A stretch of DNA of 32,000 nucleotides from Opitutales bacterium (GTDB lineage Bacteria > Verrucomicrobiota > Verrucomicrobiia > Opitutales > UBA9783): NCBI GenBank assembly GCA_046881885.1, contig JBKSMP010000024.1, positions 1-32,000 on the forward strand, read 5' to 3'. The position numbers and the translations under genes are program-made. Below, piece after piece: positions 1,299-22,199 of the stretch. The notes under the pieces were generated by a model, which saw only the letters and a program-made list of their open reading frames with translations, had not been told where the DNA came from and did not search any database. Position 1 is the first letter of the stretch, and each line of letters opens with the position of its first letter.

Positions 1299-3095
1299 TT
1301 ATTGGCGAAACAACTCTTCCAAAGAAAGCTTTCGCCAAAGAAGGTTTCCGTTTGGATCTGTAATATGATTTTCACAAGATTCGAGTGTTTGGCGCAATAA
1401 TTCGACTTGTGATTGGTTTTCAATTGTTTCAAAGCGTTTGTAAGGAAGAAGTTTCTTAATCAGAGGTTCAAAAACTTGTTCAAGTGTTTGATTTTGACCA
1501 AATTCCATGAGGTTTTCCACTAATTGTTTTACAAAGAGATCAACTTGTTCTACGGGCAACCATTGTGGAACGGCTTCCAAGACAAATGTATCTTCCGCAG
1601 TAGCTTGCAAACGACACAGCTTTCTTCGATGTAAATGATCGATAGATTCATTCAAACACGCTGCCTGCAAGTGATCTAACTTAAAGGTATGTGGGAACAG
1701 CAAGGTTTGCAAATTCTCTAAACTGCCTTTTTTTAGAGTTTTAAGGATACCGTCATACCAAATACGCATTTGGGCACCTTTACAATTGAGTACAAGTAGG
1801 CTACTTTTTTCGTCAAATAAGGCGTAAGTATTTTGCCAAAGTCCGAAGAATTTCAATTGGATTTTTACAGATTGATTGGCAATTGTATCAGGTGTTTTGG
1901 GTGTAAAACGAAAAGGTGATTTTGAAGGTATAAAAGAGGCTTGTGGACTTGCTTGCTTAAAGTGAATAGAAATGCCACCAGGCGCTTTAGATTGCTTACA
2001 AACCCAATTATCCAAATTTTTAAAATCGTCTTTAGAATTCGTATAAGTAGGATAAGATATGGGTTGCGAAAACGATTGAGCAGATGTAGTGGGATTATTT
2101 CCTGCAGCTTTTTGCAAACATTTTTGGAGGGCTTCTCCAAATACTTGTCGCAATTTGAGCTCATGTTTAAAACGTACCTCACGCTTTGTTGGATGTACAT
2201 TGATATCTACTTCATTTTCTGGAAGTTCCAAAAAGATAAAAACCGAAGGATGGGTTTTAGGGGGTAAATAGGATCGATAACATTCTCGTAAAGTTGATAA
2301 GAAGAATGTACTTGCAATGGGACGCTTATTTAAAAAAATATGGATATCTTGACTACTTGCATATCCAACTCCCGGCGGACAAATAAGCCCCGTAAAGGTT
2401 ATGTTTTCTTGCGTATAATTCAAGGATAACCAATTTTTACAAGCTCTCTTCGGCCAAAGTTCATCAATACGTGCTTCCAATTGTTGACAGCTTGGAGATG
2501 AAAAAATAAGCCGTTCTTCTTGCTTTAGCGTAAAATGGACGTGAGGATAGGCCAATGCGTACAAGCGTACTTGATTTACAATATGCGCACTTTCAGTGGC
2601 TTCCGACTTGAGGAATTTACGACGAACCGGAATGTTGTAAAAAAGTTGTTCGATGGTAAAACTTGTTCCAGGAGGGCATGCACAAGGCTTTTTTTGAACA
2701 ATTTGCCCAGCTTCACTTTCAATTTCAATCCCTAAGTCTTGATCTTTAGCGCGTGTACATAAATGAATTTTAGACACACTTGCAATCGATGGCAAAGCTT
2801 CTCCACGAAATCCAAAGGAATGGAGTGATTGTAAATCTTCTATATGTAGCAATTTGCTGGTTGCATGGCGCTTAAAACAAAGTTCTGCATCAGTTGCATC
2901 CATACCACGACCATTATCACTTACGCGTATAAAAGAAGTTCCTCCCGAACGAAATTGAATATCAATCCGCGTTGCACCTGCATCTAAACTATTCTCTAAT
3001 AACTCTTTGACAACATTCGCGGGTCGCTCAATTACTTCGCCTGCAGCAATCTGATTCGCAACCTTTTCTGGAAGAACAACAATCTTCGCTACCAT
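1299..3095 (-). CDS. mutL: DNA mismatch repair protein MutL (GHKL ATPase N-terminus; C-terminal domain lacks the endonuclease motifs)
   Basis: N-terminus MVAKIVVLPEKVANQIAAGEVIERPANVVKELLENSLDAGATRIDI, DNGRGM and GFRGEAL are classic MutL motifs. The start is placed at the Met at 3095; the ORF extension to 3158 (MSLCKTKILF...) looks spurious. Confidence 0.93.
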   Translation of the reverse strand: MVAKIVVLPEKVANQIAAGEVIERPANVVKELLENSLDAGATRIDIQFRSGGTSFIRVSDNGRGMDATDAELCFKRHATSKLLHIEDLQSLHSFGFRGEALPSIASVSKIHLCTRAKDQDLGIEIESEAGQIVQKKPCACPPGTSFTIEQLFYNIPVRRKFLKSEATESAHIVNQVRLYALAYPHVHFTLKQEERLIFSSPSCQQLEARIDELWPKRACKNWLSLNYTQENITFTGLICPPGVGYASSQDIHIFLNKRPIASTFFLSTLRECYRSYLPPKTHPSVFIFLELPENEVDINVHPTKREVRFKHELKLRQVFGEALQKCLQKAAGNNPTTSAQSFSQPISYPTYTNSKDDFKNLDNWVCKQSKAPGGISIHFKQASPQASFIPSKSPFRFTPKTPDTIANQSVKIQLKFFGLWQNTYALFDEKSSLLVLNCKGAQMRIWYDGILKTLKKGSLENLQTLLFPHTFKLDHLQAACLNESIDHLHRRKLCRLQATAEDTFVLEAVPQWLPVEQVDLFVKQLVENLMEFGQNQTLEQVFEPLIKKLLPYKRFETIENQSQVELLRQTLESCENHITDPNGNLLWRKLSLEELFRQ

Positions 3096-3220
3096 ACTTC
3101 TTAGACAATAGCTTTTTACAAGAAATGCAAATAAAATCTTAGTTTTGCACAAAGACAAAACTCAAACTTCGAAACATCAACGAAAAAGAAAGCCTTACAA
3201 AACTTTCCCTCTAACAAACC

Positions 3221-4066
3221 TCAAAATAAGGCGCTAGCAGCAGCTCCAACAGCTGTAACAGGGCCTGAATTGGAGAGGTTATCAACGGCTTTTTCGACTT
3301 TACCAAGAGCTGATTCTGCTTTCTTATAGAGACCATCCTCAGAAATAATACGTCCTAAAGTACTCTTTTCGTTATTTAACTTTTCAGAAAAGTCTTCGAT
3401 GTTTTTCATGATATTTTCGAAAGATTGTGCTATTTCTGGATCTGAAATAAGTTTTCCAATCAAACCTTTGCTGGCTTTAATGTCGTCAAACAATGCGTCC
3501 ACCTTATTAGCAGCTGCTTTAATTGATTGCACCATTTCAACAAATTCTGTATAAGCTTGATCTTCACTCATGAGACGTCCTAAAGTACCTTTACCTGCTG
3601 CAAGTCCTGCCAACAATTGATCAAGACGATCACCGATATTACTAAATTTTTGCACAACAACCGAAACATCATTGGCTTGTTTCGTATTCAAAAACGCAGA
3701 ATCTTGAACTGGTTTAGTAGAATCTCCTGGCACAATAGAAACATAGTTAGCACCTAGCAATCCTGCCATCAAAATCGTAGCAGTAGAATCCTCGGGTATA
3801 GCATACTTTTTTTCAATACTGAGAACAGCAACCGCCAAATCCTTATTAAGATAGGTTTGCACAACACTACCTACACGGACACCCGCCACACGAACATCGT
3901 CCCCAACTTGCAACTGTTTTAAGTCTGTAAACAAAGCTTTTATATGATAACTATCGTGTCTCGCTACCGATAAGCGCGTGAGCGATGAGTACACAATGTA
4001 CATTAAGAAAAAACCAAAAAAGGTAAATAAAGCAACACGGATACTGTCAGAATATTTTATTTTCAT
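3221..4066 (-). CDS. mlaD: MlaD/MCE-family substrate-binding component of the Mla-type ABC lipid transporter
   Basis: N-terminal TM helix followed by an MCE core (LQVGDDVRVAGVRVGSV). The C-terminus repeats a (G/S)TLGRL(M/I)SED / GLIGKLISDPE motif. There is a 4-nt ATGA overlap with the upstream ATPase gene. Confidence 0.8.
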   Translation of the reverse strand: MKIKYSDSIRVALFTFFGFFLMYIVYSSLTRLSVARHDSYHIKALFTDLKQLQVGDDVRVAGVRVGSVVQTYLNKDLAVAVLSIEKKYAIPEDSTATILMAGLLGANYVSIVPGDSTKPVQDSAFLNTKQANDVSVVVQKFSNIGDRLDQLLAGLAAGKGTLGRLMSEDQAYTEFVEMVQSIKAAANKVDALFDDIKASKGLIGKLISDPEIAQSFENIMKNIEDFSEKLNNEKSTLGRIISEDGLYKKAESALGKVEKAVDNLSNSGPVTAVGAAASALF

Positions 4067-4854
4067 GATAATAACGAAATAAATTGTGGATGTTGAATGT
4101 TAATGGTGGGATTCAAAAAGTTTTGCACAAATGGATTTTGCGACTTTAACAAAGATTCCGGAGTATAAATTTCCTTCAAACTCCCGTCTTGGAGCACACC
4201 GATGTGGTTACCAATGGAACGAGCAAGTATAATATCGTGAGAAACTGCCAAAGTCGTAATCCCAAGCTTTTTATTGACATAACCAATAATCTCGATGATA
4301 GAAGCTGCCGTAATGGGATCTAATTCTGAAGTGGGTTCATCAAATAAGAGAATATCAGGCTCCATTAACAAACCACGCGCTAAAGCTACACGCTTTTTCA
4401 TACCACCCGATAAACTCGAAGGCATCAAATCAGCCGTATTATTAAGTCCCAACAAATCTAGCACCTTGGCAATACGCTTACCAATTTCTGCTTCATCATA
4501 AAGTGCATGTTCTCTAAAATAAAGAGCTAAATTATCGAAAACAGTCATGGAATTGAAGAGCGCACCTGCCTGAAAAACCAAACCAATGACAAAGCGATTT
4601 TCTTTTTTAACTTGTTGTAAAGGGATTCCATTAATCGTAATACTTCCAGACGATAACGAGTCTAAACCTGCTAACAACTTTAAAAACACACTTTTACCCG
4701 TTCCACTAGGCCCCATAAGGACGAAGACCTCACCTGCTTCAACGCTTAAATTAAGATCTTTGAGAACTTCATGCGTTCCAAACTGCTTCCCCACATGAGC
4801 AACTTCGATAGAAACCGCCGACTTTTTTAAATGATTTTTTTCGAAAAGCGTCAT
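4063..4854 (-). CDS. mlaF: ABC transporter ATP-binding protein, MlaF-like
   Basis: Walker A GPSGTGKS, signature LSGGMKKRVALA, Walker B ILLFDEPTSELD. Lies between the MlaE-like and MlaD-like genes. Confidence 0.9.
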   Translation of the reverse strand: MTLFEKNHLKKSAVSIEVAHVGKQFGTHEVLKDLNLSVEAGEVFVLMGPSGTGKSVFLKLLAGLDSLSSGSITINGIPLQQVKKENRFVIGLVFQAGALFNSMTVFDNLALYFREHALYDEAEIGKRIAKVLDLLGLNNTADLMPSSLSGGMKKRVALARGLLMEPDILLFDEPTSELDPITAASIIEIIGYVNKKLGITTLAVSHDIILARSIGNHIGVLQDGSLKEIYTPESLLKSQNPFVQNFLNPTINIQHPQFISLLS

Positions 4855-4859: not shown

Positions 4860-5603
4860 TTATAGAAGAAGTTTAGTTACAAAATAATCCAAGGTTAAAA
4901 TAGCCACCATCGTTTGCACAAGCGTACTCGTTACAGAAGCACCAATTTCGCGAGGTCCACCTTGGGTTCTCATCCCAATTGAACAGCTCATCAAAATAAT
5001 CGTTAGCGCAAAAATTTCCGATTTTATAAGCCCATCGGTAATACTGTCAATATCCACATACTGCTTTAAACTGCGCCAATAAATTCCTCCGTCGATTGAA
5101 ATAACATCCACCGTTTTTACCACAAACCAACCACCAATCCAGCCAAGAACATTAGAAAACATCGTTAAGAATGGCATCATCAGTAAACCGCCAACAATGC
5201 GAGGCATAACCAAAAGACGTACGGGTGACAAATTCATGGTACGCAAGGCATCAATTTCTTGATAAACAGACATCGAAGCTAACTCTGCAGTAATGGCAGA
5301 TCCTACACGTCCTGTTAGTAAAAACGCCGTCATTAAAGGCCCTAATTCGCGACACATTGAAAGTCCAACAATGCTTCCTAAAAATGTTTGAGCTCCAGGT
5401 AGTTTACTTAGGCTATATCCCGTTTGCAAGGCCAAAATACCACCGATAAACAAACTTAAAATGCCAACAATTGGAAACGTTTTATACCCCATATTACAGC
5501 TATGATCCAAACAGCGCGAAAGTTGACGTGGCAAATAGCTCAATTCCTTCAAGGAATGCCAAAACAAGCTAAATGCATAATGCCAATCTTTTAATATCTT
5601 CAT
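4860..5603 (-). CDS. mlaE: ABC transporter permease, MlaE-like
   Basis: Polytopic membrane protein with the MlaE-family stretch RELGPLMTAFLLTGRVGSAITAELASM..YQEIDALRTM. There is a 4-nt overlap with the upstream 470-aa gene. Confidence 0.88.
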   Translation of the reverse strand: MKILKDWHYAFSLFWHSLKELSYLPRQLSRCLDHSCNMGYKTFPIVGILSLFIGGILALQTGYSLSKLPGAQTFLGSIVGLSMCRELGPLMTAFLLTGRVGSAITAELASMSVYQEIDALRTMNLSPVRLLVMPRIVGGLLMMPFLTMFSNVLGWIGGWFVVKTVDVISIDGGIYWRSLKQYVDIDSITDGLIKSEIFALTIILMSCSIGMRTQGGPREIGASVTSTLVQTMVAILTLDYFVTKLLL

Positions 5604-7012
5604 AATACTTTCAAATCTTTCCTAGGTCTATCCTTTTTCTTTAATGTAAACCAAAAGACACGAAAAGACTTTTCTTCCTTTATTCTCTTATATTCCAATA
5701 ATCCTTTCAATAAAGAAAAATACTTTTCTTGGGGTTTATTCTTATATTCTAGAAAAATAGAATACTTCAAATGTTGCCCTAAAGGATCTTGTTTTTCGTA
5801 AAAAAGCTTGAAAAGAAAACTTTGACGAATCGTATTTCCGTCTTTTTCGTAACGATACAAGCTAAATAATGGCGTATAAATCTCTCTTATCATCTTATTA
5901 TTTGGAAAAAACACTTCGAAAGGACTCAAGGCTTGCACCTGTTCGTGTCCTTTACCATTGTTCCAATAACTATAGAACGGCCAAAAGTGAGTTTTATTTC
6001 CTAAAAATTCACCTGTTTGTGCATTTTTTTGTTCTTGATGCCAAAATAAAAAGTAGAGAAACTGCTCTTGATGAATCGCTACTGATTGTTCAATCCAATT
6101 CTGTTGCTTGATAAATGGCCACAAAAACCATTCTTTATTAGATTTATGCGCTTTGTTTTCAGAATAGGTATGAAATGGAGCCCAACGATTGATTAAACGA
6201 GTATCCCCTCTTCCTTGGACCCATAAAGGCCATAAAATACGATGTTCTTCATAATGCGGATGCTTTTCCCAGCGATGTCCCCATATAGGCCAAATAATCG
6301 ATAGATCTTTTACATTTGCAGTTTTTTCATAAGCGTAAAGCGGTAAAAATCCAGTCTTTAAGCTTTCTTCAGGCTGCCAATATTGGTGTCTATAAAATAG
6401 AGGCCATATCGCGTAACGCTCGTCATAAGCATTTTCTTTATAAAAATGTCCTCCCAAAGGCCACAAAGCAAAACCTTGACTATCACCTTTGCGAACCGTA
6501 ACAAAGGGCCAAGGAGTCCAATAATTCACTTGTTCTCCCTTGTACGTTTTAATCCATAAAGGCCATAAAAACCAATCCGATCGATCTTTACCTAAAAAGT
6601 TCTTAACGGTTCCACCTAAAGGCCATACAGCTGCGTAATCGCTTTCAAGCCCATAACCTTTTCTAAAAAAACCAAAAGGCAAAAACTGACCTTCTCGATA
6701 TTGTTTTTCAGAAGAAAAACGCCAATCATAATTGAACAATCCAAAAAAATTACTCCAACAAATACGTTCTTTTTCTCGATAATCTCGCCCGAAAGGATAT
6801 AAAAAATAACTTTCAGTTCGTTCTTCTCCTACAGACTTGTATTGAACACCAAACGGCCTTAAAAATTGTACTGTTTCGGCATTATTTGATTTTTTTTCAA
6901 CAATGGGATAAAAACAATTTTCAGTTTGTTCTTCACATTTATTGGCCAATAAATACCCAACAGACATCCCTAAATAATAAAAAAGGATTCTGTTTTTTTT
7001 TAAGAAGAACAT
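5600..7012 (-). CDS. Uncharacterised Trp-Pro repeat protein (470 aa), first gene of the mlaE-F-D operon
   Basis: Long uninterrupted ORF whose composition matches the neighbouring core genes. It has a hydrophobic N-terminus (ILFYYLGMSVGYLLA) and about 20 repeats of an aromatic-W/L-P-(L/F/I)-(W/G/F) motif. Its stop overlaps the mlaE start. I recognise no known family. Confidence 0.8.
   Translation of the reverse strand: MFFLKKNRILFYYLGMSVGYLLANKCEEQTENCFYPIVEKKSNNAETVQFLRPFGVQYKSVGEERTESYFLYPFGRDYREKERICWSNFFGLFNYDWRFSSEKQYREGQFLPFGFFRKGYGLESDYAAVWPLGGTVKNFLGKDRSDWFLWPLWIKTYKGEQVNYWTPWPFVTVRKGDSQGFALWPLGGHFYKENAYDERYAIWPLFYRHQYWQPEESLKTGFLPLYAYEKTANVKDLSIIWPIWGHRWEKHPHYEEHRILWPLWVQGRGDTRLINRWAPFHTYSENKAHKSNKEWFLWPFIKQQNWIEQSVAIHQEQFLYFLFWHQEQKNAQTGEFLGNKTHFWPFYSYWNNGKGHEQVQALSPFEVFFPNNKMIREIYTPLFSLYRYEKDGNTIRQSFLFKLFYEKQDPLGQHLKYSIFLEYKNKPQEKYFSLLKGLLEYKRIKEEKSFRVFWFTLKKKDRPRKDLKVL
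5639..6865 (-). repeat. Coding array of about 20 degenerate ~20-aa repeats (FLYPFG, FLPFG, VWPLGG, LWPLW, PWPF, LWPLGG, IWPLF, FLPLY, IWPIWG, LWPLW, WAPF, LWPF, FWPF, LSPF, YTPLF ...)
   Basis: The motifs recur every 17-24 residues through residues 50-458. At DNA level the identical 17-mer ccataaaggccataaaa occurs at 6221-6237 and 6554-6570, both encoding LWPLW. Confidence 0.8.
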
Positions 7013-7018
7013 TTATAA

Positions 7019-7047
7019 ACTATACCTCATAAAAAACTTAGGGTCAA
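7019..7047 (-). promoter_or_regulatory. Predicted sigma70-type promoter TTGACC-N17-TATAGT directly abutting the start codon of the repeat-protein/mla operon
   Basis: On the minus strand: ttgacc (7047-7042), a 17-nt spacer, tatagt (7024-7019), then ttataa and the ATG (7012-7010). The A of the ATG lies 7 nt after the -10 hexamer, and there is no Shine-Dalgarno sequence. Confidence 0.45.
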
Positions 7048-7195
7048 GCATTATTTCCTTTCTCAAACTTTTATAACAACACTCGTTGTAAAAATTAACA
7101 AAAGAAGCATTACCTGCCCAAACGATCACTACGAGATCTAAAAAAAATTGATCGAAAATTGTTCCGATCTAAGCTCTAGAGTGAAATTCTATTAT

Positions 7196-7496
7196 TAGGA
7201 AGGTGGTATGATCGTTGGCAATGACGTTTGGATCGGTCACAACGCTGTCATTATACCAGGGGTTACCATCGGTGATGGAGCCATTATTGCCGCAGAATCA
7301 ATTGTAACTTCTACGGTACCTCCCTACTCCATCTATGGTGGCAATCCCGCTAAATGCATCCGTAAGCGTTTCGACGAAGACACGATTCAGCTTCTCTTAG
7401 ATCTCCAAATGATGGGATTGGCCTTACGAAAAACTTACGCAATACCTTCCGGTCATCTTTTGGACCGATACAAAAGCTCTTAGGAAGCTTTTGTAG
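7196..7496 (+). pseudogene. Decayed xenobiotic acetyltransferase (XAT; Vat/CatB-type hexapeptide-repeat) gene: 5'-truncated, frameshifted and carrying an internal TGA
   Basis: [66 protein letters not shown] matches the C-terminal half of Vat/CatB enzymes. An in-frame stop lies at 7196-7198 and no N-terminal half precedes it. The expected WWDWP motif appears only in the +1 frame as [18 protein letters not shown] (TGA at 7410-7412), running to a stop at 7494-7496. Confidence 0.75.
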
Positions 7497-7533
7497 ATCT
7501 ATAGCTACCTCTGTAAGTTTATTATTTTAAAAA

Positions 7534-8235
7534 TCAAGGTAATGGCATTGGGTACATTTCTTGTTCTCCACATAAGACTTTGTATGCAATTCCACAATCT
7601 CCTAATTTTATAATCATGTTAGCCATATGCTTTAATGTCCATTTGTGATCAATAAAATTTGTAAAATTATAAAATAATAATTGCATATCTACTAAAATAG
7701 ACCTATGCCTAACATAAAATAATGCTAAACGAGATTTAATGGGGCGACATCGAGTAAAATAAGCATCATATGGATCTTCATAGTTAGCTAAGAAATTTTC
7801 CATTTTTGACAAAAACAAAGATGCAAAATCTGATATACCCGGGCTAACATCAACAATATGCTTTTCATTTTCTGTAAAACTTTCATACTCAGATATTAAT
7901 TGAGGTCTAGGACCAATTAACAAAATATCTCCTTTAATTACGTTTATAAGCTGAAAAAACTCATCCAATTTTAAAGTTCTTACAAATTTTCCAATAGGTG
8001 TAATTCTTTTATCATTTACTGCAGTTGCAACTATATTTATCGAATCAGCTTGATAAACCATAGATCTTAATTTAATCATTCGAAATAATTTTCCATTTTT
8101 TCCAACTCTATACGGAGTATAAAAAGGATTTTTACCGTCATATACCCAAACTAAAATAGTTATTAGCAACAAAATCGGACTTAAAATTATAAAAATTATA
8201 AGCGCAAGTATTCTTTGAAAAAAACTCCAAATCAT
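7534..8235 (-). CDS. Small monotopic phosphoglycosyl transferase (bacterial sugar transferase family; PglC/EpsL/WbaP-C-terminal type)
   Basis: A single N-terminal hydrophobic helix (ILALIIFIILSPILLLITILVWV) followed by FRMIKLRSM, LKLDEFFQLINVIKGDILLIGPRP. It is the last gene of the cassette and overlaps the aminotransferase gene by 4 nt. Confidence 0.85.
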   Translation of the reverse strand: MIWSFFQRILALIIFIILSPILLLITILVWVYDGKNPFYTPYRVGKNGKLFRMIKLRSMVYQADSINIVATAVNDKRITPIGKFVRTLKLDEFFQLINVIKGDILLIGPRPQLISEYESFTENEKHIVDVSPGISDFASLFLSKMENFLANYEDPYDAYFTRCRPIKSRLALFYVRHRSILVDMQLLFYNFTNFIDHKWTLKHMANMIIKLGDCGIAYKVLCGEQEMYPMPLP

Positions 8236-9362
8236 GCCAATTCCTCAATGATTATTTTACAAATAAATTCTTGTTGTTCTTCTGTTAATCGTGTTCCAGA
8301 GGGTAAACACAAACCATTTGCAAATAATTTTTCACCAACATTACCACCATAATAGCGATTATTTTTAAATATCGGTTGCAAATGCATAGGCTTCCAAACA
8401 GGTCGTGATTCAATGTTGTGGTTTCCCAAGGTTGTCCATAAATCTTTCCAGGTTTTAGAGTTTTTCTTTGAATCTATTTGTACAACGGTTAACCAATGAT
8501 TGGGATTGCCATAGTCAGCCACCGGCATGAAAGATATTTTATCTCCCAAAGAGGTCAATAATTTTTTGTAATTTTCAAAAATTTGTCGTTTTTTATTTAG
8601 TTTTTTATCGATATTTTCTAATTGTCCCAAGCCAATGGCCGCACAGATATTGCTCATTCGATAATTAAATCCAACTTCTTTATGCTCATAATAAGGGACT
8701 AATTCTCGAGCTTGCGTGGATAATTTACGTGCATGATCAATTAAATCTTTATTGTGTGAAAGCAAAGCACCTCCGCCTGAAGTTGTGATAATTTTATTGC
8801 CATTAAAAGACAATGCACACGCATCTCCCAAATTACCAGCATGCTTACTTTTGTAAGTAGCACCTAAAGCTTCTGCAGAATCTACGATTAATGGAATTCC
8901 TAAAGGATTGCAAAGACTTCTTATCGCATCATAATCAGCACATTGGCCATAAAGATCAGTTACAATCACTGCCTTCGGAAGCTTGCCTTCTTTTTTGCAA
9001 TCATTTATAGCTTCTTCTAATAAATTAGGATCCATATTCCACGTTTCATTAGAACAATCAATGAAACGAAGTTCTGCTCCCATGTGATATGAATTTGATA
9101 CACTTGCTATAAAAGTTAAATCAGAAGCAATAATAACATCACCAGACAAAATACCTAAATGTTTTAATGCTAAATGTAAAGCAGATGTACAGCTATTCGT
9201 GACTAAACAGTAAGGGATTCCAGTATAAATTGAAAGCGCTTCCTCAAAAGCTTCTGTTGCTGGTCCTAAAGGAGCAATATAATTGGAAGAAAAAGCATCC
9301 TGGACATAACGAAGTTCGTTACCATCTATATCAGGAGGAGATAAAAAAATTCTATCATTCAT
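8232..9362 (-). CDS. PLP-dependent sugar aminotransferase, DegT/DnrJ/EryC1 family (EpsN/PglE-like)
   Basis: FLSPPDI.GNELRYV..AF.SNYIAPLGP, DSAEALGATYK, and the PLP-lysine context SFNGNKIITTSGGGALLS typical of EpsN/PglE-type enzymes. Confidence 0.9.
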   Translation of the reverse strand: MNDRIFLSPPDIDGNELRYVQDAFSSNYIAPLGPATEAFEEALSIYTGIPYCLVTNSCTSALHLALKHLGILSGDVIIASDLTFIASVSNSYHMGAELRFIDCSNETWNMDPNLLEEAINDCKKEGKLPKAVIVTDLYGQCADYDAIRSLCNPLGIPLIVDSAEALGATYKSKHAGNLGDACALSFNGNKIITTSGGGALLSHNKDLIDHARKLSTQARELVPYYEHKEVGFNYRMSNICAAIGLGQLENIDKKLNKKRQIFENYKKLLTSLGDKISFMPVADYGNPNHWLTVVQIDSKKNSKTWKDLWTTLGNHNIESRPVWKPMHLQPIFKNNRYYGGNVGEKLFANGLCLPSGTRLTEEQQEFICKIIIEELA

Positions 9363-10476
9363 TGGCTAAAAATTTAAATTTATGTCCATGTAATATTATT
9401 TGTGGTCCATAATTTTTATAAATAGTTGCTCGTATTTTTTGTTCTAAGTCTTCTTGTGAACTATTTGCATCAATCGTCATTAATTTATCAAAATCTTTTC
9501 GTGTAAATGCTTTTCTAGACCATTTTTCGTTTGAAATTGGTAATTCTTTACCCAGTAAAATAAAATCCATAATTTCGTAAAACAAAAACAATAAAGCATT
9601 ATAAGTTCTTTGCAACAATGATTCAACATTATCCGTCGGATAGAGTGGAAATTTTTTTGTAGCAATGATTTGTCCTGCATCTACTGAAGCTAACATATGA
9701 TGACAAGTCACTCCATAAGAAGTTGCATTTTCATATAAAGCAAAATTATTACAACCAATTCCAGGATAATCAGGCGAAGCTGGATGAAAATTTATAGCTG
9801 CTTTGTTTGCAAGTTTTAAAACTTTTTCAGGAAAAATCCAACGTGACAAAAAATTGATAAGATAATCACAAGATTTAGTATTTAAATCTTCAGGAAAAGG
9901 ATCGCCCCAAGCACTCAGAAAAAACTCTATGTTTGCAAAATGCATCTTACAATAATTCATTGCTTCTTGTGTAAAATAGTCATCTTTTTTACCACAAAAA
10001 ATAATTTTTTCAGTACATTTAACCCTTGATCCATAACCCTTGATCCATTCTACACGCGGATTTGCCCATTGACCGCGTTTGTTTTTAATTTTTATGATTT
10101 TTGCTGGGCATCCAACAGCAATACAATTTGCTGGTAAAGATTTGTTTACGAAACTGTTTGCTCCTACGATTGTATTTTCACCAATCGTAACATTGGGCAT
10201 AAGCGTAGAGTGACTTCCAATACAACAATTTTTTTTCAGAATAACAGATCCTGTTTTCTTATCGATAGTAGAAATTGAGTATATAGAACAATGCGAGCCT
10301 AATTGAACATTATCTTCGAGAATTACACCATTTTTAGCATTTATATAAGAAAAGGCACCTATATCCGTTTTATAACCTAATTTTAAATTTTTCACATGGC
10401 GAACCACCCAACCATACTCAGTAGGTTTCCCATCCTCCATTGTTGGATAGTGCCAACTATCAAAGCGATTATTCAT
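9355..10476 (-). CDS. Two-domain fusion: N-terminal left-handed beta-helix (hexapeptide) acetyltransferase and C-terminal formyltransferase-like domain
   Basis: Residues ~25-128 carry hexapeptide repeats (ILEDNVQLGSHCSIYS..ILKKNCCIGSHSTLMPNVTIGENTIVGANSFV). Residues ~155-300 resemble the formyltransferase N-domain (AINFHPASPDYPGIG..YGVTCHHM..VDAGQIIA), with candidate Asn229/His231/Asp266. Confidence 0.75.
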   Translation of the reverse strand: MNNRFDSWHYPTMEDGKPTEYGWVVRHVKNLKLGYKTDIGAFSYINAKNGVILEDNVQLGSHCSIYSISTIDKKTGSVILKKNCCIGSHSTLMPNVTIGENTIVGANSFVNKSLPANCIAVGCPAKIIKIKNKRGQWANPRVEWIKGYGSRVKCTEKIIFCGKKDDYFTQEAMNYCKMHFANIEFFLSAWGDPFPEDLNTKSCDYLINFLSRWIFPEKVLKLANKAAINFHPASPDYPGIGCNNFALYENATSYGVTCHHMLASVDAGQIIATKKFPLYPTDNVESLLQRTYNALLFLFYEIMDFILLGKELPISNEKWSRKAFTRKDFDKLMTIDANSSQEDLEQKIRATIYKNYGPQIILHGHKFKFLANE

Positions 10477-12884: not shown

Positions 12885-15287
12885 GTGCCACTCGAAAAAT
12901 CGTATACTTTAAAAGCTTTAGAAATTTGGTTTCAATCCTACCGTAAACAATGGTGGGATTTTTTTTCAAAAACAGAACAAGAACAAGGGAAATTGCTTTT
13001 AGAGCGTGGGATTTCTTCCATTGAGATTGATCCGCACTACCTATTAATCAGTGGTAAAAAAGATCAAAAAACATACTTCGCCACTTTGGATTTGCCTAAA
13101 CAAGACCCTTTTGCTTTACAAATTTCAGACAAACTGGAAGCTTTTGGACGGACTTTATTGGCCTCGGGTTTGCTGTGTTTAGAAAAACTTTTCCAGGATC
13201 ATCTCGATACCTTATCCCTTGCAATACCCAAACAGGATGCACAGACTGAAAATGAAACTGAAAAACGGAAATCCAATCCCCGCGCTAATGCAACCACACA
13301 GCTTGTTTTCTTCAAAAAAGACCAGTCGCTTGCATTTGAAGTATCTTTTAAGCGTGGCGAACAGTTTGAGAAGTTAACGTCTCTTAAGCAGAGTTTAAAA
13401 CCTCATGAACGGGAACATCTGCTGTCTATTATGCTGCAAACGCAAAAGTATGGATTTCGTTGGAGCAAATCCTGTTTTGTGAATTCCAGCCTCGAATTAT
13501 TGCCTAATTTCGTTCAAAATGTCTTACCCAAGTTATCCCAAAAGTATTTTGTCGAAGTTCCACAAACCGTTTGCGATCTGTGTCGAGGCTTAAATAATAT
13601 CCAAGTTCAATTGTCTACGAATAGGACCGGGCATTTGCTTCAGCACTTTTTAATCACTTCTGGCGAAATTGAACAGGATTTAGTACAACATTCGATTAAG
13701 GCTAAAAATCACATTTATTGGTCAGAACAACATGGCCTTATTCGTTGCCAAGAAAATACGCTTGAATGGGTTCAACGCTCGAATGATTGGAAACATCGTC
13801 TTAATAAAAAAGGTGAAGATTTACCGGCCTATATGCTGTTGTCGCTCTTCAACATTCACACCATTTCTCAAGAAGCTAAAACCTGGCTGCAGGAACTTCA
13901 AAAAGCCATTAATCCCATTAATAGCGATTTTCCGCTATTAAGATCGTATCAACGTGATGGGGTTGTTTGGCTAAAGCATATCCTGGATAATCATTGTCAT
14001 CCTTTATTGGCAGATGAAATGGGCTTGGGAAAGACGAGACAGTTATTAACGCTTCTGGAGCTTTTAAAAGGCGATTCTGATGAGGAACAACCGTCTTTGG
14101 TAGTTTGTCCAGCAAGCGTAATTAGCGCATGGATCAATGAGCGCAATCTTTATTATCCACACTTAAATTTACAGGTTTTAAACCAGGAATCACTTGCAGC
14201 TTATGAAAAAGCTCCCCATACGATCTTTGTCGCGAGTTATTCGCAATTGTTAGTCAACTTTCATGCATTAAAAACTCTATCCTTCAAATGCATTATTTTA
14301 GATGAAGCGCAATGTATTAAAAATCCGAAATCCAAGACGGCGCATGCTTGTTTTAACTTAAAAGCGAAGTATCGGATCGCAGCAACTGGAACCCCCGTTG
14401 AGAATAACGTCATTGATTTGTGGACTATTTTCCATTTTTTGATGCCAGGATTTTTAGGAAACTTCAAGGAATTCCAAAAGTTTACCCAAACCCAAGAAGC
14501 TTCCGATCGCCTTAAGAAACAAATAGCTCCCTTTGTTTTGCGTCGCACACAAGCAGAAGTTTTGCAGGAATTGCCGGAAAAACAAGAACGTATTATTTAT
14601 TGCCCAATGACTGAAAGGCAGCGTGAATTGTACGAATCTACGCGCGATTTACGTCAAAACTTACAACAAGGTCAATGGGAACGTCTCTTTACACTTATCT
14701 TACGCTTACGGCAAATTTGCTGCGATCCAGGCTTATTACCTACTTATAAGGACTTGTCTATAGAAACGAGCGGGAAACTGGCTTGGTTACTCAAGAAATT
14801 AAAGGATCCGACTCATAAAAAAATCATTATCTTCAGTCAATTTAAACAGCTTTTAGACCGTCTAGAACCGTCTATAAAAGCTTTGTACCCGCAAATCTAT
14901 GTCCTAACAGGCCACACACCCACATCTAAGCGTGCGCAACTGATCGCCAATTTTCAGAAAACAAAAGATCGGGCAGCCTTTCTTATTAGCTTAAAAGCAG
15001 GCGGAACCGGTATCACGCTTCATACGGCCGATACGCTCTTTATTCTCGATCCTTGGTGGAACCCAGCCGTTGAAGAACAAGCCATTGCACGCGCTCATCG
15101 CTTGGGCCAAAAGCAATCTCTTAAGGTTTATCGCCTCCTTATCGAAAACTCTATTGAAGCCAATATTCAACAATTACAGCAGCATAAACAACAACTTTTC
15201 TCGCAACTCTTTAACGATCCTACCCATCAACTCCCATCTGAACGCTGGCAACAACTTTATCAGCTGCTTGTGGATAAAAAAACTTGA
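12885..15287 (+). CDS. SNF2/RapA-family helicase-like ATPase with a ~340-aa N-terminal accessory region
   Basis: LRSYQRDGV.WL, motif I ADEMGLGKT, motif II ILDEAQCIKN, motif III ATGTPVEN, helicase-C SLKAGGTGITL and WWNPAVEEQAIARAHRLGQ. It starts with GTG 4 nt after the glmM stop. Confidence 0.9.
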   Translation: MPLEKSYTLKALEIWFQSYRKQWWDFFSKTEQEQGKLLLERGISSIEIDPHYLLISGKKDQKTYFATLDLPKQDPFALQISDKLEAFGRTLLASGLLCLEKLFQDHLDTLSLAIPKQDAQTENETEKRKSNPRANATTQLVFFKKDQSLAFEVSFKRGEQFEKLTSLKQSLKPHEREHLLSIMLQTQKYGFRWSKSCFVNSSLELLPNFVQNVLPKLSQKYFVEVPQTVCDLCRGLNNIQVQLSTNRTGHLLQHFLITSGEIEQDLVQHSIKAKNHIYWSEQHGLIRCQENTLEWVQRSNDWKHRLNKKGEDLPAYMLLSLFNIHTISQEAKTWLQELQKAINPINSDFPLLRSYQRDGVVWLKHILDNHCHPLLADEMGLGKTRQLLTLLELLKGDSDEEQPSLVVCPASVISAWINERNLYYPHLNLQVLNQESLAAYEKAPHTIFVASYSQLLVNFHALKTLSFKCIILDEAQCIKNPKSKTAHACFNLKAKYRIAATGTPVENNVIDLWTIFHFLMPGFLGNFKEFQKFTQTQEASDRLKKQIAPFVLRRTQAEVLQELPEKQERIIYCPMTERQRELYESTRDLRQNLQQGQWERLFTLILRLRQICCDPGLLPTYKDLSIETSGKLAWLLKKLKDPTHKKIIIFSQFKQLLDRLEPSIKALYPQIYVLTGHTPTSKRAQLIANFQKTKDRAAFLISLKAGGTGITLHTADTLFILDPWWNPAVEEQAIARAHRLGQKQSLKVYRLLIENSIEANIQQLQQHKQQLFSQLFNDPTHQLPSERWQQLYQLLVDKKT

Positions 15288-15312
15288 AAAGAAGTCTATA
15301 TTTCTTTATAAT
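15284..15312 (+). promoter_or_regulatory. Predicted sigma70-type promoter TTGAAA-N17-TATAAT abutting the start codon of the orphan gene
   Basis: ttgaaa (15284-15289, which contains the SNF2 TGA stop), an exact 17-nt spacer, a perfect tataat (15307-15312), then tttcct and the ATG at 15319. The A of the ATG is 7 nt after the -10 hexamer, and there is no SD. Confidence 0.45.
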
Positions 15313-15318
15313 TTTCCT

Positions 15319-16398
15319 ATGACTGGGGTAGGTAATATTAATTCTAATTCAAACACTCAAAATATAAATACTATTGAGACAAAATCTCAAGTCAATCAAC
15401 CCTCTAAGGAGTATTCTTATGGATTTCGAGCGATCTTAAAGAGTATTGGGCGTTATTTGACTTGCGGATTCAGTTCAACCAAAAGACGAGCGATTGTTAT
15501 AAAAGAATTCGCAAATACAAGTATACCAGATATTAGCAAATTAAAAAATCGGTCTGCAGAAGTTAAAACAGCTTTACTCACCTCCAATAACTTATCTGAT
15601 CAACAAAAATCAACAATATATAACGAATATAAAACTGAAATAGATACTTACATCCAAAAACACAAATTAGAACATCCAATAGGTAAAAAAATAAATGAAA
15701 AATTAATCTCCAATAACTTATCTAATCAAGAAAAATTAGAATTTTATGCTCAAAATATGACAGAAATAGATTCTTATTGTCAAACATCAGGCATAAAAAA
15801 TCCATTACTAGGCAATTCTTCATTTAATGATTTAGAAAAAATAACAGCACAAGGTATTTACACAGTCAACTTTCCTACTGCAAGCAATATTGAAATATTT
15901 ATGAATGGTTTGGAGGCTTATGTAAATAAAGAATTTTCGGCTATTGAGAAAGTTGACAATTTGGATGAAAAAAAATCAAAAATTGAAAAATTATACACAA
16001 GCATACAGGAAATGATAATGATATTAAATAAAACTAATCTTAAGCTTGATCCAATATCACTCGAACAACCTTTAAAAAAACAACAAGAACTATTTTTAGG
16101 AAATTTTTTCCAACAAGCAATTGCTAACCAAAAACTCACACGTATGGTTATGCCAATGAAAGGATGGTTAGACCTTGTTAATAAATCTAATGCGAAACCT
16201 GGAGAAATTAAGGGCGCTTGGAATGAAATTAAAAAACAAATAGACTTTTCAGACCAAAAACTTATTTTAAACAAAACTAACACATTAAAAAATTTCAAAA
16301 CTACTTTAGATTCTTTTAACAAAAACTACAACTTGAATGATGAGATGGGGGGGATAAAAGCAATGCAACGCTTTAATGGTCCTGAATTTAAAGACTAG
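15319..16398 (+). CDS. Orphan hypothetical protein (359 aa); candidate T3SS substrate
   Basis: 15319 is the first ATG after the SNF2 stop; the track ORF from 15070 merely reads through the SNF2 3' end. The gene is very AT-rich (hand count ~22% GC on line 15661 versus ~45% on an SNF2 line). The N-terminus MTGVGNINSNSNTQNINTIETKSQV is Ser/Asn/Thr-rich and lacks a signal peptide. I recognise no family. Confidence 0.7.
   Translation: MTGVGNINSNSNTQNINTIETKSQVNQPSKEYSYGFRAILKSIGRYLTCGFSSTKRRAIVIKEFANTSIPDISKLKNRSAEVKTALLTSNNLSDQQKSTIYNEYKTEIDTYIQKHKLEHPIGKKINEKLISNNLSNQEKLEFYAQNMTEIDSYCQTSGIKNPLLGNSSFNDLEKITAQGIYTVNFPTASNIEIFMNGLEAYVNKEFSAIEKVDNLDEKKSKIEKLYTSIQEMIMILNKTNLKLDPISLEQPLKKQQELFLGNFFQQAIANQKLTRMVMPMKGWLDLVNKSNAKPGEIKGAWNEIKKQIDFSDQKLILNKTNTLKNFKTTLDSFNKNYNLNDEMGGIKAMQRFNGPEFKD
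15574..15816 (+). repeat. Internal tandem duplication (two ~39-aa units, offset 42 aa) within the orphan gene
   Basis: LLTSNNLSDQQKSTIYNEYKTEIDTYIQKHKLEHPIGKK (res 86-124) versus KLISNNLSNQEKLEFYAQNMTEIDSYCQTSGIKNPLLGN (res 128-166). Hand alignment gives 16/39 identical residues. Confidence 0.6.
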
Positions 16399-16782: not shown

Positions 16783-17580
16783 TCAACGGTACGTAAGTGC
16801 CAAGGCTTCGACGATTTTATCCCAACCGTTGACGAGCACAAAGAGCATCAATTTAAACGGAAGTGAAATCGTCATTGGCGAGACCATCATCATACCCATT
16901 GCGAGGAGGATATTGGAGATAATAAGGTCGATTGCGATAAAGGGTAAATAAATGAGAAATCCGATTTCAAAGGCAGCTGTTAATTCGGTTAAAACGAATG
17001 CCGGGACACAGATAATAAGATCGGAATCTTTAATGTCTTTTACAAAGGATTTTGGCCATAAACGCTTCGCTACATGGATCAAAAAAGCACGATGTTTGGG
17101 CGTTGAATGCTTCATGAGAAAGTCCACAAAAGGTTGTTTGGTGTAACCAAAGATCGCTTTTAGATCCTCTGTTTGATTTTTTAGTTGTTCTGTTTTACTT
17201 TCCTCTCCAGAAACCAGGTTGTTTAAGAAATTAGCTTCGTTCGATTGTTCTTTACGATAAGGTTTCATTGCTTCTGGAAGCTCAAATGTTGTGTTATTGC
17301 CCTTGCGCTGATTGAGGACATCGCGCGACTGTACCATACGATAAATCCCTTCTTGTAAGGTCGGAGCCATGATATAAAGCGTTAAAATCAATGCAAGGCC
17401 ATTGACAACCATATTGGGTGGAACTTGCTGCAAACCCATTGCCTGTCGCAACAGGTTTATAACAACGACCAACTTCATAAAAGAAGTGATCATCATGGCA
17501 ACAAAAGGTCCTAAGGATAATACAATGAGGAGAATAATAATCCCCATTGGATCGTAAATAAACGAATCGTTAAATGGCAT
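16783..17580 (-). CDS. sctR: T3SS export-apparatus protein SctR (YscR/FliP family)
   Basis: SLGPFVAMMITSFMKLVVVINLLRQAMGLQQVPPNMVVNGLALILTLYIMAP and the C-terminal AFEIGFLIYLPFIAIDLIISNILLAMGMMMVSPMTISLPFKLMLFVLVNGW are hallmark SctR/FliP sequences. Confidence 0.93.
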   Translation of the reverse strand: MPFNDSFIYDPMGIIILLIVLSLGPFVAMMITSFMKLVVVINLLRQAMGLQQVPPNMVVNGLALILTLYIMAPTLQEGIYRMVQSRDVLNQRKGNNTTFELPEAMKPYRKEQSNEANFLNNLVSGEESKTEQLKNQTEDLKAIFGYTKQPFVDFLMKHSTPKHRAFLIHVAKRLWPKSFVKDIKDSDLIICVPAFVLTELTAAFEIGFLIYLPFIAIDLIISNILLAMGMMMVSPMTISLPFKLMLFVLVNGWDKIVEALALTYR

Positions 17581-17581
17581 C

Positions 17582-17965
17582 TTATTTTAAATTGAGTTGA
17601 GTGATACGGACACCTAAATGTTCGTTGATTTGTACCCATTCGCCTTCACCAATACAACGACCATTAGCAAGGATTTGAAGCGTATCACTAGGTGTTTTAT
17701 CGAGTTCAAAAGCATAACCTTCGTGTAACTGCTTAACTTGTTCAAGTGATAGGGTCTGCTCACCTGCCATAAAAGTAATCGTTACGGGCATGGTCTGCAG
17801 TGCATCTTGCCCGGTAACCGAAACCGGTTCACTAGTCTCCTCTTCTTCCGGAGGCTGAGGCGTCTCTTCAATTTCTTCTGAAACTTCTTCCGTTTCTGGT
17901 GGTGTTTCTTCAGGTATAATACCCGCTGGTAAATCGTTATTTTCGTCCATAATCATCGTCCACAA
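17582..17965 (-). CDS. sctQ: T3SS sorting-platform protein SctQ, C-terminal SpoA (FliN-like) module encoded as a separate ORF
   Basis: The C-terminus TLSLEQVKQLHEGYAFELDK...LQILANGRCIGEGEWVQINEHLGVRITQL has the SpoA/FliN signature. It is preceded by an acidic Pro/Glu linker. The track start is TTG at 17965; in-frame ATGs lie at 17956 and 17950. The upstream ORF stops at 17937-17939, so the two overlap in different frames. Confidence 0.8.
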   Translation of the reverse strand: MWTMIMDENNDLPAGIIPEETPPETEEVSEEIEETPQPPEEEETSEPVSVTGQDALQTMPVTITFMAGEQTLSLEQVKQLHEGYAFELDKTPSDTLQILANGRCIGEGEWVQINEHLGVRITQLNLK

Positions 17966-18656
17966 TTAAAGATTTTACAGTTATTGTTTGACCTTCGCAA
18001 TCCGCTTGAAATGCAAAGTTTTTCCATCGAAAATTAAAATACGTTTGTCCGTCTTTAACCAATAAGACATCACCCAAATTTAAAGTTTTAACGTCTTGCA
18101 ACAAAAGCTGTGTTTGTGCACGTTCGATTGTAAAAGGAAAAACTAAACCTTCTGCTTCATTTGCAGGTTCAATGCTCTTAAAAAGGCCATCAAAAGTATT
18201 TAACGGCAGATTATCTGCGTTTATATAAAGCGAATAAATCGGTGTATCTTCGCGATTTATGATACATTGTACAAGGTTAGAACAGGGTTTCTCTTCTTCC
18301 CATAATTCCACTTTTTTAGGCGTTAAAACAAGCTGCCACTGCGCAAAAATGCTCGCAATATTCGTCTGTAAGGTATTTAACAAGATCGTCTTTAGATCTC
18401 CAGAAAGATCTTTTAAATCCATGCTTTCAAGTTGCGGATCCAGAAAAGTACATAAACCATTGCTTGGAACGAAAAATTGTACTTCGGTCTCTTGAAACGT
18501 ATACGTTAAACAGGCAATACATTGGGCTTGTTGCTCTCGTCCTAAATTAAGCGTATGAACTAGGTCTATGTGCGAAAACGGTAACGAATTGCACCAGTTT
18601 CGACTAAGGTGCGCATACAAAGGCAATAAAGTGCAACTCGGTTTAAAGGCCTCCAT
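17937..18656 (-). CDS. sctQ: T3SS sorting-platform protein SctQ, N-terminal part including a first SpoA-like segment
   Basis: Sits between sctP and the SpoA ORF. Its C-terminal region (FPFTIERAQTQLLLQDVKTLNLGDVLLVKDGQ..FAFQADCEGQTITVKSL) resembles the first SpoA repeat of YscQ/SpaO. Confidence 0.7.
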   Translation of the reverse strand: MEAFKPSCTLLPLYAHLSRNWCNSLPFSHIDLVHTLNLGREQQAQCIACLTYTFQETEVQFFVPSNGLCTFLDPQLESMDLKDLSGDLKTILLNTLQTNIASIFAQWQLVLTPKKVELWEEEKPCSNLVQCIINREDTPIYSLYINADNLPLNTFDGLFKSIEPANEAEGLVFPFTIERAQTQLLLQDVKTLNLGDVLLVKDGQTYFNFRWKNFAFQADCEGQTITVKSLIVDDDYGRK

Positions 18657-18658
18657 CG

Positions 18659-19813: not shown

Positions 19814-20231
19814 CCAAAATTCTTACTTCTTCCTTCCAAATCTTTTTATGCTCTTCGATTTTATCCTTTTCGAGCATTGCCTGCTTTAAAGCTTCGGAAG
19901 CTTCCGTAACTTTTTGTTGAGCCTCTTTATAATTATTATGTGCTTTTTCTAGATCGATTGCAAGCTTCAATTGATGTTCTTCTAATTTATTAACTTTTAA
20001 GTTAATCACATCCATATAATTGCGCTTGAATTGCACTTTTTGCATTACCTTTGTATAAATAATATCGATAAAGTCAGGTTTTTTTTGAATAAAGGCATCC
20101 AGTTTTTCTTGGCAAAGTTGTATATGTTTTAGAGCTTCTTCGAGAGCTTGCTTTGCTTTCATAAGAACTTCTTGAGCATGATCTTTACGATGATCGCGTA
20201 CACGTAACAAATCCTGTAGTTCATACTGCAT
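19749..20231 (-). CDS. sctO: T3SS stalk protein SctO (YscO/FliJ-like coiled coil)
   Basis: 160-aa all-helical, charged coiled-coil protein immediately downstream of the ATPase gene, which is the canonical sctO position. Confidence 0.7.
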   Translation of the reverse strand: MQYELQDLLRVRDHRKDHAQEVLMKAKQALEEALKHIQLCQEKLDAFIQKKPDFIDIIYTKVMQKVQFKRNYMDVINLKVNKLEEHQLKLAIDLEKAHNNYKEAQQKVTEASEALKQAMLEKDKIEEHKKIWKEEVRILDEREQDKELEDFKTKEKDGSG

Positions 20232-20235
20232 TTAT

Positions 20236-21561: not shown

Positions 21562-21563
21562 AG

Positions 21564-22199
21564 TTATCGTAATGCCTCTTGTATTGCCTTCATAATTGTT
21601 TCCAATTGCATAGAAACACTTGCTTCTAGGATGCCAGTTTCAGTTTCAAGCGTACATTCATCCAAGTTCAAATCCTTATTAATGACAACCTCGACACGTT
21701 CCAAATTAGGCTTTAACTCTATCAATTCATTAACTTTTTCTTGCAACAAAGTCGCTTGGTCAGGATGTACCGCAATCGACAAACATTTACCTTCTGGAAG
21801 CAGCTTAATCGCATTTTTTACAACTGAACAAATTCGTTCTTCTGGTGGAATTTCACCTAAAATCTTCAAAAACATCGATTGCAGGGTGCTTACAAAGGTT
21901 GCATTTAAATTTGAAAAAAATTGAATTCCATGATCCATTTGCTCAAAAATCTTTGCCAAACGCTCTTGTTCCATTTGCTGACGACATTCTTCTTCCGACT
22001 TTGCACGATCGGCTGCTATGCTTTTCTGAGCATCCTCTTTCATCAATTGGATTTGCGCCTCTGCTTGCTCAAACATTTTTTGACGCTTCAACTTCGCATT
22101 AGCAATAATGTCTTCAGATTGAGCAAATACCGCATATTCCTCGCATTTTACGATACGGCTTTCTGGACATATTTTTTTAGAACTCTGCAAGATTAACAT
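21564..22199 (-). CDS. sctL: T3SS stator / ATPase regulator SctL (YscL/FliH family)
   Basis: 211 aa with a charged coiled-coil N-half ([36 protein letters not shown]) and a globular C-half. Lies immediately upstream of sctN. Confidence 0.8.

Follow-up and report, generated by a model that had tools for sequence, protein, structure and literature searches.

A hairpin-repeat protein family encoded with needle-type MCE lipid transporters in Opitutales

Introduction

What does a protein assembled from short aromatic-proline repeats do at the head of a lipid transporter operon? This question is raised by a 32,000-nucleotide stretch of contig JBKSMP010000024.1 (positions 1 to 32,000; assembly GCA_046881885.1) from an Opitutales bacterium of the Verrucomicrobiota, referred to as the window in the following, in which a gene for a 470-residue repeat protein precedes mlaE, mlaF and mlaD. 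An initial annotation made from the DNA alone did not recognize the protein family and proposed a periplasmic or outer-membrane partner of an Mla-type transporter, hypothetically a lipid-headgroup binder or an MlaA analogue, which would make the locus an undescribed four-component lipid-trafficking module.

The way in which MCE systems are joined to the outer membrane is a recognized gap in the field. According to a 2026 study, the insertion of lipids into the outer membrane and their extraction from it “remains more obscure”, and several systems have no known outer-membrane component (PMC13631591). A phylogenomic survey from 2023 concluded that the majority of bacteria possess just MlaEFD, in which MlaD is long, and raised the possibility of helper proteins yet to be identified (PMC10665443). 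The known outer-membrane partners of MCE systems are porin-like barrels and MlaA-like and PqiC-like lipoproteins, and for Let and Mce1 none is known (PMC13631591).

Results and discussion

A conserved gene linked to mlaEFD

Both the open reading frame (ORF) and the Pfam matches of its neighbors agree with the initial annotation that the repeat gene is the first gene of an mlaE-mlaF-mlaD operon (Table 1). Downstream of it follow mlaE, mlaF, mlaD and then mutL. The TGA stop codon of the repeat gene and the ATG start codon of mlaE share the four nucleotides ATGA, an overlap that had been pointed out before and was read directly at the junction (...AAA GTA TTA TGA with ATG AAG...), and another 4-nucleotide (nt) overlap joins mlaF and mlaD. 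The promoter-like site and the terminator-like hairpin in front of the repeat gene are compatible with this gene heading its own operon; both are consensus matches only, and the total of promoter-like sites in the region is not above the chance count. None of the window ORFs scanned (most ORFs below 110 amino acids (aa) lay outside the scan) matched the MlaA, MlaB or MlaC families, in keeping with the earlier statement that no such gene is present. The gene mutL (window 1299-3158) is located directly 3' of mlaD, and in another locus of the family (L024) the repeat gene lies directly 3' of mutS (5097-7637), which may be a coincidence.

Table 1 Coordinates of features in the repeat-protein operon of the window.
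Feature	Position	Strand	Basis or remark
Repeat-protein gene (470 aa)	5600..7012	-	ORF with ATG start; 768 homologues; opens operon
ATGA stop/start overlap, repeat gene/mlaE	5600..5603	-	Same 4-nt overlap in 45/85 related loci
mlaE-family permease (247 aa)	4860..5603	-	PF02405, E 4e-67
mlaF-like ABC ATPase (263 aa)	4063..4854	-	PF00005, E 7e-34
MlaD/MCE protein (281 aa)	3221..4066	-	PF02470, E 9e-18
Promoter-like site TTGACC-17-TATAGT, directly 5' of repeat-gene start codon	7019..7047	-	Consensus match only
Terminator-like hairpin and T-run, upstream of promoter-like site	7150..7169	-	Consensus match only
Signal peptide, ~aa 1-23 (MFFLKKNR-ILFYYLGMSVGYLLA)	6944..7012	-	AlphaFold helix 2-22; family N-termini; cleavage site inferred
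Aromatic-Pro hairpin array, aa 28-361, 35 strands	5930..6931	-	Model, unit profile, adjacent-strand coevolution
Conserved non-beta insert, aa 362-385 (SPFEVFFPNN..IREIYTPLF)	5858..5929	-	Near-invariant residues, long-range couplings
C-terminal beta module, aa 386-457, 9 strands, no Pro motif	5642..5857	-	Model, couplings
Basic C-terminal tail, aa 458-470 (KKKDRPRKDLKVL)	5603..5641	-	Low model confidence
Conserved hydrophobic C-terminal tail of MlaD (GPVTAVGAAASALF-COOH), candidate docking peptide	3224..3265	-	Conservation in linked MlaD

The same arrangement recurs in related genomes. In 76 of 80 species loci, mlaE lies directly downstream of the repeat gene on the same strand; all three mla genes are visible in 73, and all except one of the remaining species loci end at a contig edge. 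The named organisms behind these 80 loci all belong to Opitutales/Puniceicoccales lineages, the others being labeled only Verrucomicrobia, and within the Opitutales the linkage is near-universal. Opitutus terrae, Coraliomargarita and Lacunisphaera are examples of cultivable carriers of the family. Across 85 loci, the spacing between the repeat gene and mlaE is the 4-nt stop/start overlap in 45 and within 20 nt in 71. Linkage was also found in another phylum: operons of Deltaproteobacteria/Thermodesulfobacteriota type carry the repeat gene either ahead of mlaE, mlaF and mlaD (L082, L083/84, L085) or behind them (L081, L086, L087, L088). Its maintenance across a phylum-level distance and through an altered gene order is strong evidence of a shared function, and the repeat protein is very probably a partner of the MCE/Mla transporter. 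The lack of synteny in related genomes that the initial annotation had named as evidence against its proposal was not observed.

The repeat gene is real and under purifying selection. Its ratio of nonsynonymous to synonymous substitution rates (dN/dS) was 0.13 in comparison with a 94%-identical relative, in which mlaE, mlaF and mlaD yielded 0.03, 0.08, and 0.04, respectively. A scan of one genome per species detected relatives in 448 species, a lower bound for the family. Together, these two results rule out a decayed ORF, a second objection that had been foreseen initially. A search of 5.8 billion proteins retrieved 768 homologues, all named only “hypothetical protein” and none with a precomputed Pfam domain, and a profile search of 1.84 billion cluster representatives retrieved 2,024 proteins at E ≤ 0.001, of which 715 reached E ≤ 1e-30. 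The family reaches metagenome-assembled genomes (MAGs) labeled Deltaproteobacteria or Thermodesulfobacteriota, and its deltaproteobacterial-type members match the family profile at E 1e-71 to 1e-96 with the aromatic-Pro positions kept. Neither the single sequence nor the profile matched Pfam, NCBIfam or PDB sequences, so the family proved as unfamiliar to these databases as it had seemed at first. No fused domains were found by Pfam on ten longer homologues, and no description of the family was found in the literature.

An exported, basic protein without a conserved lipobox

To judge from its N-terminal sequence, the repeat protein is exported by Sec. The hydrophobic N-terminus noted initially corresponds to a family-wide signal peptide of the cleavable, signal-peptidase-I type (for example ...ALA/EE or ...AWA/EE, with the slash marking cleavage), and a hydrophobic h-region is present in 208 of 234 members. 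A conserved lipobox was not found in these members, just 26 of which contain a permissive pattern at a position that is not conserved; on this ground, a lipoprotein was ruled out. Aromatic residues make up 21.6% of the repeat protein and Trp alone 5.1%. The mature protein is basic, with a median net charge of +11 in the family and of +14 in the window protein, whose close relatives conserve ...KDxK(V/M/L)L at the C-terminus.

Some distant members differ at their ends. The repeat proteins of L081, L087, and L088 have a long low-complexity tail that terminates in ...GPYQF, ...SPIQF or ...GGF, endings reminiscent of the C-terminal aromatic signature of outer-membrane proteins. The member in L082 (6001-7962, 653 aa) is extended at its N-terminal side: its signal peptide is followed by ~190 additional acidic, Pro-rich residues, which include a long internal duplication (...SPFAKPISDV.SPSDTEPDPPPASE...).

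A continuous array of hairpins with two chemically distinct edges

A unit hidden Markov model seeded on the aromatic-Pro motifs recognized 13 significant units in the repeat protein, compared to 0.08 on average in 50 shuffled sequences. An alignment of 63 homologues contains 13 invariant prolines and three others conserved to ≥90%, with a spacing of 16–20 residues; these mark 16 units, and a family-consensus WP near residue 36 marks a 17th. The AlphaFold2 model built with 63 sequences (predicted local distance difference test (pLDDT) 91.3, predicted template modeling score 0.75) consists of a helix (residues 2–22) followed by 44–46 strands of 5–8 residues in strict up-and-down order, corresponding to ~22 hairpins. 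The initial count of about 20 units was thus a fair one, although the sequence by itself reveals just the 13 detected with the unit model. The insert at residues 362–385 is the sole non-beta element after the helix, and the C-terminal beta module closes with the conserved strand SFRVFWFTL. As modeled, the fold is one continuous antiparallel beta-meander.

Coevolution was analyzed by mean-field direct coupling analysis with 264 effective sequences, which shows local pairings and a few long-range clusters and cannot define a fold. All adjacent strand pairs were supported (mean z = 4.8 versus a non-local background of 2.5 ± 0.5). This also holds across the aromatic-Pro loops, which are therefore true turns; kinks inside long strands were ruled out for the aromatic-Pro segments because the flanking strands coevolve as pairs. 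No strand offset other than adjacent, including offset 4, was enriched, an observation at odds with propeller blades or a regular superhelix. The insert is coupled, above noise, to four separate aromatic-Pro turns (56-378, 72-372, 147/149/150-363/365, and 315-324 with 366-368), and others connect C-terminal strands with each other (400-405 with 453-454) and with strand 305-309 (with 439-442). The clustering of these long-range couplings points to a compact fold with the insert as its keystone.

The turns of the array alternate between hydrophobic aromatic-Pro and polar Gly/Asn/charged types. Every one of the 17 odd-numbered turns is hydrophobic (mean Wimley-White +0.54, 36% aromatic, 5% charged) and every one of the 17 even-numbered turns is polar (mean −1.19, 8% aromatic, 34% charged), with zero overlap in hydrophobicity between the two sets (U = 289, p = 7e-7). 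Since alternate turns of an up-and-down sheet lie on opposite edges, one edge forms a continuous belt of Trp, Phe, Leu and Pro, and the other is charged.

Foldseek found no global match for the model among 350,542 PDB chains (best template modeling (TM) score 0.19 query-normalized and 0.35 target-normalized). Local matches in the PDB were to WD40/YWTD propellers, OspA, the CPAP G-box, teneurin, and ApoB100, and MORN-repeat proteins recurred as confident local matches among predicted viral structures (probability 1.0, TM 0.13–0.25). With MORN proteins and OspA (Foldseek probability 1.0 and 0.98, respectively), the modeled repeat protein appears to share a hairpin unit of ~20 residues and a continuous antiparallel sheet. 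However, it has no match to the Pfam MORN families (PF02493/PF07661), the TM-scores are confined to the low range given above, its signature is aromatic-Trp-Pro-Leu in contrast to the YxGxW..G of MORN, and coevolution suggests a compact, insert-tied fold. A beta-propeller (WD40, PQQ, Kelch, YWTD) was rejected for want of a Pfam match, a query-normalized TM-score above 0.19 or offset-4 coevolution, and a regular superhelix because of the low TM-scores and because no strand offset is preferred. The resemblance to choline-binding repeats suggested in the initial annotation did not hold up. The protein has no Pfam match to the choline-binding/cell-wall-binding solenoid (PF01473), and its sheet is continuous with coevolution between all adjacent strands, so a meander that is locally MORN/OspA-like takes the place of the solenoid.

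An all-beta, exported protein also calls to mind the porin-like MCE partners (chloroplast TGD4/LptD-type barrels and the C-terminal MlaD barrel of Veillonella parvula), which have been proposed to join the MlaEFD core to the outer membrane (PMC10665443; PMC12096540). The repeat protein could likewise be an integral outer-membrane beta-barrel that is inserted by the beta-barrel assembly machinery (BAM) and is itself the lipid portal. Besides the signal peptide, the all-beta model, and the status of porin-like barrels as known MCE partners (PMC13631591), the end of the protein can be cited in favor of a barrel: the last strand is conserved (...LKLLWISF, ...WRLFLFDF) and, among the 144 members in which it could be located, forms the exact C-terminus in ~20%; F is the C-terminal residue in 19 of 234 members, and certain distant members end in ...YQF or ...IQF. 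Yet strands of 5–8 residues are too short for a membrane span (~9 or more), hydrophobicity is gathered at one set of turns and does not alternate along the strands, the loops are short on both sides, and in most members a polar tail of 11–15 residues follows the last strand. Moreover, no barrel was among the Foldseek PDB matches. We consider a membrane-inserted barrel very unlikely.

The transporter is a needle-type MCE system

The initial annotation described the transporter as Mla-type. Its MlaE, ABC (ATP-binding cassette) ATPase and MCE genes were confirmed, but the system is not of the E. coli Mla type: the NCBIfam cut-offs for the E. coli equivalogs were missed by MlaE (166 versus 315) and by MlaD (91 versus 135). 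The MlaD linked to the repeat gene carries the Helical_needle domain (PF28544) in every context with precomputed annotation except L085, where the third gene (433 aa) has no Pfam match on record. For the window MlaD, the model is of low confidence (pLDDT 56) and its secondary structure alone was used; it comprises a transmembrane helix and the MCE beta-domain, followed by four helical modules with GxLGxL motifs between them. On the strength of these sequence features, the transporter is a needle-type MCE system, a member of the family and no E. coli-type equivalog, and its architecture is nearer to that of PA3211-PA3214 from P. aeruginosa than to that of MlaFEDB-MlaC-MlaA from E. coli. The Helical_needle domain on the MlaD of relatives also makes PA3211-PA3214/PqiC, rather than MlaA, the closest precedent.

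Needle length varies among these systems. The window MlaD is ~49 residues shorter than most of its Opitutales relatives (316–344 aa) and apparently has one helical module fewer, and deltaproteobacterial MlaD lengths often fall on a 7-residue ladder (329, 336, 343, 350, 357, 364 ... 377, 384, 391, 398). This pattern in the sequences suggests that needle length changes by heptads.

A further conserved element is the C-terminus of MlaD. Without exception, the 77 MlaD proteins encoded with the repeat gene terminate in a conserved uncharged tail, ...GP(I/V)TAVG(V/A)xAxxLF-COOH or variants of it; those in distant operons read ...GPLSVLGLAIGRLF, ...TPITVLGTIIGLFF, and ...GSLTTLGIALQALF. Among the closest relatives of the L081 MlaD, 120 of 120 end in ...TPI(T/S)VL...FF. 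The searches for further MlaD proteins returned close relatives only, all of them linked to the repeat gene.

The PA3211-PA3214 operon has been expressed in a heterologous host. For this system, an MCE needle of ~170 Å with an octameric lipoprotein ring at its tip has been described (PMC13631591). In PA3213/PqiB, the MCE protein inserts its C-terminal peptide into a hydrophobic groove that the outer-membrane partner offers at the needle tip, and in PA3211-PA3214 this peptide consists of the last seven residues (PMC13631591). The repeat protein resembles the PqiC-like partners (E. coli PqiC, PA3214) in being encoded by a fourth gene beside MlaE-like, MlaF-like and needle-MCE genes and in having an MCE partner with a conserved C-terminal peptide (PMC13631591). 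In L081 and L086-L088, the repeat gene follows the MCE gene and occupies the slot of the PqiC-like lipoprotein in PA3211-PA3214. In contrast to PqiC-like proteins, it has no PF03886 match, no lipobox and a different fold, and is mostly encoded by the first gene. It is also a single 50-kDa chain of ~22 hairpins, whereas PqiC-like proteins form an octameric ring of small subunits.

The likeness to MlaA/VacJ is confined to the candidate role of an outer-membrane-side partner of an MlaFED-type transporter. A lipoprotein of alpha-helical fold in the E. coli Mla system, MlaA has its gene at a separate locus and cooperates with soluble MlaC, whereas the repeat protein is all-beta in the model, has no lipid anchor, is encoded in the operon, and is paired with a needle-bearing MlaD. 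Membership in MlaA/VacJ (PF04333) was rejected, as no Pfam or NCBIfam match was obtained at E ≤ 1, no lipobox Cys is conserved and the model is all-beta. Membership in MlaC (PF05494) was rejected because of the missing profile match and because the all-beta model differs from the mixed alpha/beta lipid-binding fold of MlaC. According to the 2023 survey, MlaA and MlaC are mostly limited to Proteobacteria, and a C-terminal barrel was not found in MlaD of the Planctomycetes-Verrucomicrobia-Chlamydiae group (PMC10665443). The survey table records two mlaEFD sets for Opitutus terrae with MlaA, MlaB, and MlaC absent, and Coraliomargarita has one set with MlaA/MlaC and one bare D-F-E set (PMC10665443).

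The recorded absence of MlaC from Opitutus terrae would suit a repeat protein that replaces it as a soluble periplasmic carrier, shuttling lipids between the outer membrane and MlaFED, and so would an exported protein with no anchor and a large aromatic hydrophobic region. Such a shuttle is quite unlikely in our view, since the linked MlaD has a long needle of the kind thought to bridge the periplasm without one (PMC13631591; PMC10665443), no lipid-binding fold was recognized, and 50 kDa is large for a carrier.

A candidate partner at the tip of the needle

In our proposal, a needle-type MCE/Mla ABC lipid transporter has the repeat protein as an obligate accessory subunit, and this transporter would consist of the MlaE permease, the MlaF ATPase, and an MlaD hexamer with a helical needle crossing the periplasm. 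The repeat protein would sit at the distal, outer-membrane end of this needle and take up the conserved hydrophobic tail (...GPxTxxG...LF) at the C-terminus of MlaD, while turning the aromatic-Pro edge and the basic surface of its own sheet toward the inner leaflet of the outer membrane. It would thus couple the lipid tunnel to the outer membrane, the role played by the PqiC-like lipoproteins in PA3211-PA3214 and PqiABC. Taken in full, with distal position, tail docking and an outer-membrane-facing edge, the proposal is tentative, and we regard it as a serious possibility that falls somewhat short of probable. Of the partner envisaged in the initial annotation, export and operon partnership stood, while the outer-membrane-proximal location is something we infer, as are MlaD binding and a role in lipid entry or exit.

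Several observations weigh against placing the protein at the needle tip. It has neither a lipid anchor nor membrane-spanning strands by which to hold the outer membrane, and in most operons its gene comes first, not last. The MlaD tail could instead make a six-stranded mini-barrel of its own, as in Mce1, and such a mini-barrel is also predicted for some long MlaD proteins (PMC10665443). In L024, which includes 8 kb of downstream sequence, there are no mla genes nearby; mutS is found upstream of the repeat gene and unrelated genes downstream. Finally, a giant protein of 1,767 aa (P0250) contains 11 stretches that match the family profile and is encoded among glycoside hydrolases, which shows that the repeat module also occurs outside mla operons. 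P0250 originates from a Joint Genome Institute metagenome contig, where its gene adjoins those for glycoside hydrolases of the GH2 and GH92 types, away from any mla genes.

The L024 gene and the giant protein in a carbohydrate-use locus could also be taken to mean that the repeat protein is an envelope protein with no part in lipid transport, such as a surface or structural protein, which only shares the promoter of mlaEFD. Unless the function is shared, it is difficult to account for a linkage that is found in two phyla, in differing gene orders and with translational coupling, and we regard this explanation as highly improbable.

A function with the transporter but away from the outer membrane would be that of a periplasmic scaffold, assembly or regulatory factor on the MCE ring or needle shaft, or of a peptidoglycan spacer. 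The concave beta-sheet of MORN4 grips the Myo3a helix, and a concave sheet of the repeat protein might hold helices in a similar manner. The protein is basic and has a locally MORN-like hairpin array; the position of its gene as the first of the operon would suit co-translational assembly, and operon linkage and coupling are explained as well by a scaffold as by the tip partner. What a scaffold leaves unexplained is the wholly hydrophobic aromatic-Pro edge and the strong conservation of the MlaD tail at the far tip. We therefore judge a scaffold or spacer unlikely.

A more far-reaching form of the tip-partner proposal is that the family represents a fourth structural class of MCE partner at the outer-membrane end, a new-fold, single-chain hairpin array that makes a lipid portal. 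Needing neither a lipid anchor nor BAM-type barrel insertion, the array would immerse its Trp-Pro edge in the inner leaflet of the outer membrane, capture the six C-terminal tails of the MlaD needle and, together with them, make up the site of lipid entry or exit in Opitutales and Thermodesulfobacteriota. In this specific form, the proposal is rather unlikely to be correct.

Other features of the window

Directly upstream of the lipid-transport operon, on the same strand, lies a sugar-modification cluster (7534-10476, minus strand) for a bacterial sugar transferase, a DegT-type aminotransferase and a hexapeptide acetyltransferase/formyltransferase fusion, which probably serves surface glycan or lipopolysaccharide synthesis. 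Between this cluster and the repeat gene, a 91-aa ORF on the opposite strand (7208-7483, plus strand) matches no more than the C-terminal portion of a hexapeptide-repeat acetyltransferase and is likely to be the remnant of a gene. Positions 16783-26546 (minus strand) are occupied by a non-flagellar type III secretion (injectisome) cluster that looks complete. It contains genes for SctR/FliP, SctQ/FliN, HpaP, YscO, the SctN ATPase, SctL/FliH, SctJ/YscJ, and SctI as well as for an HrpB1-like tetratricopeptide repeat protein and SctD (YscD/FHA). It is unusual to find such a cluster in Verrucomicrobia. As for the window itself, its closest relatives are MAGs of host-associated origin (gut, termite, and rumen samples). 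No Pfam match was obtained for the ORFs at 28052-31618 (minus strand, 1,188 aa) and 15070-16398 (plus strand, 442 aa).

Implications

A transporter system of this type, an MCE ABC transporter with an accessory protein, is already known. In the databases and literature searched, no description exists of the accessory family, of its fold or of its two-sided chemistry, and the initial reading of the locus as an undescribed four-component module stands. With its occurrence in two phyla, its place within the operon, its export, its two-sided chemistry and a fold unlike the solved structures searched, the repeat-protein family is a concrete candidate for a helper of MCE transporters.

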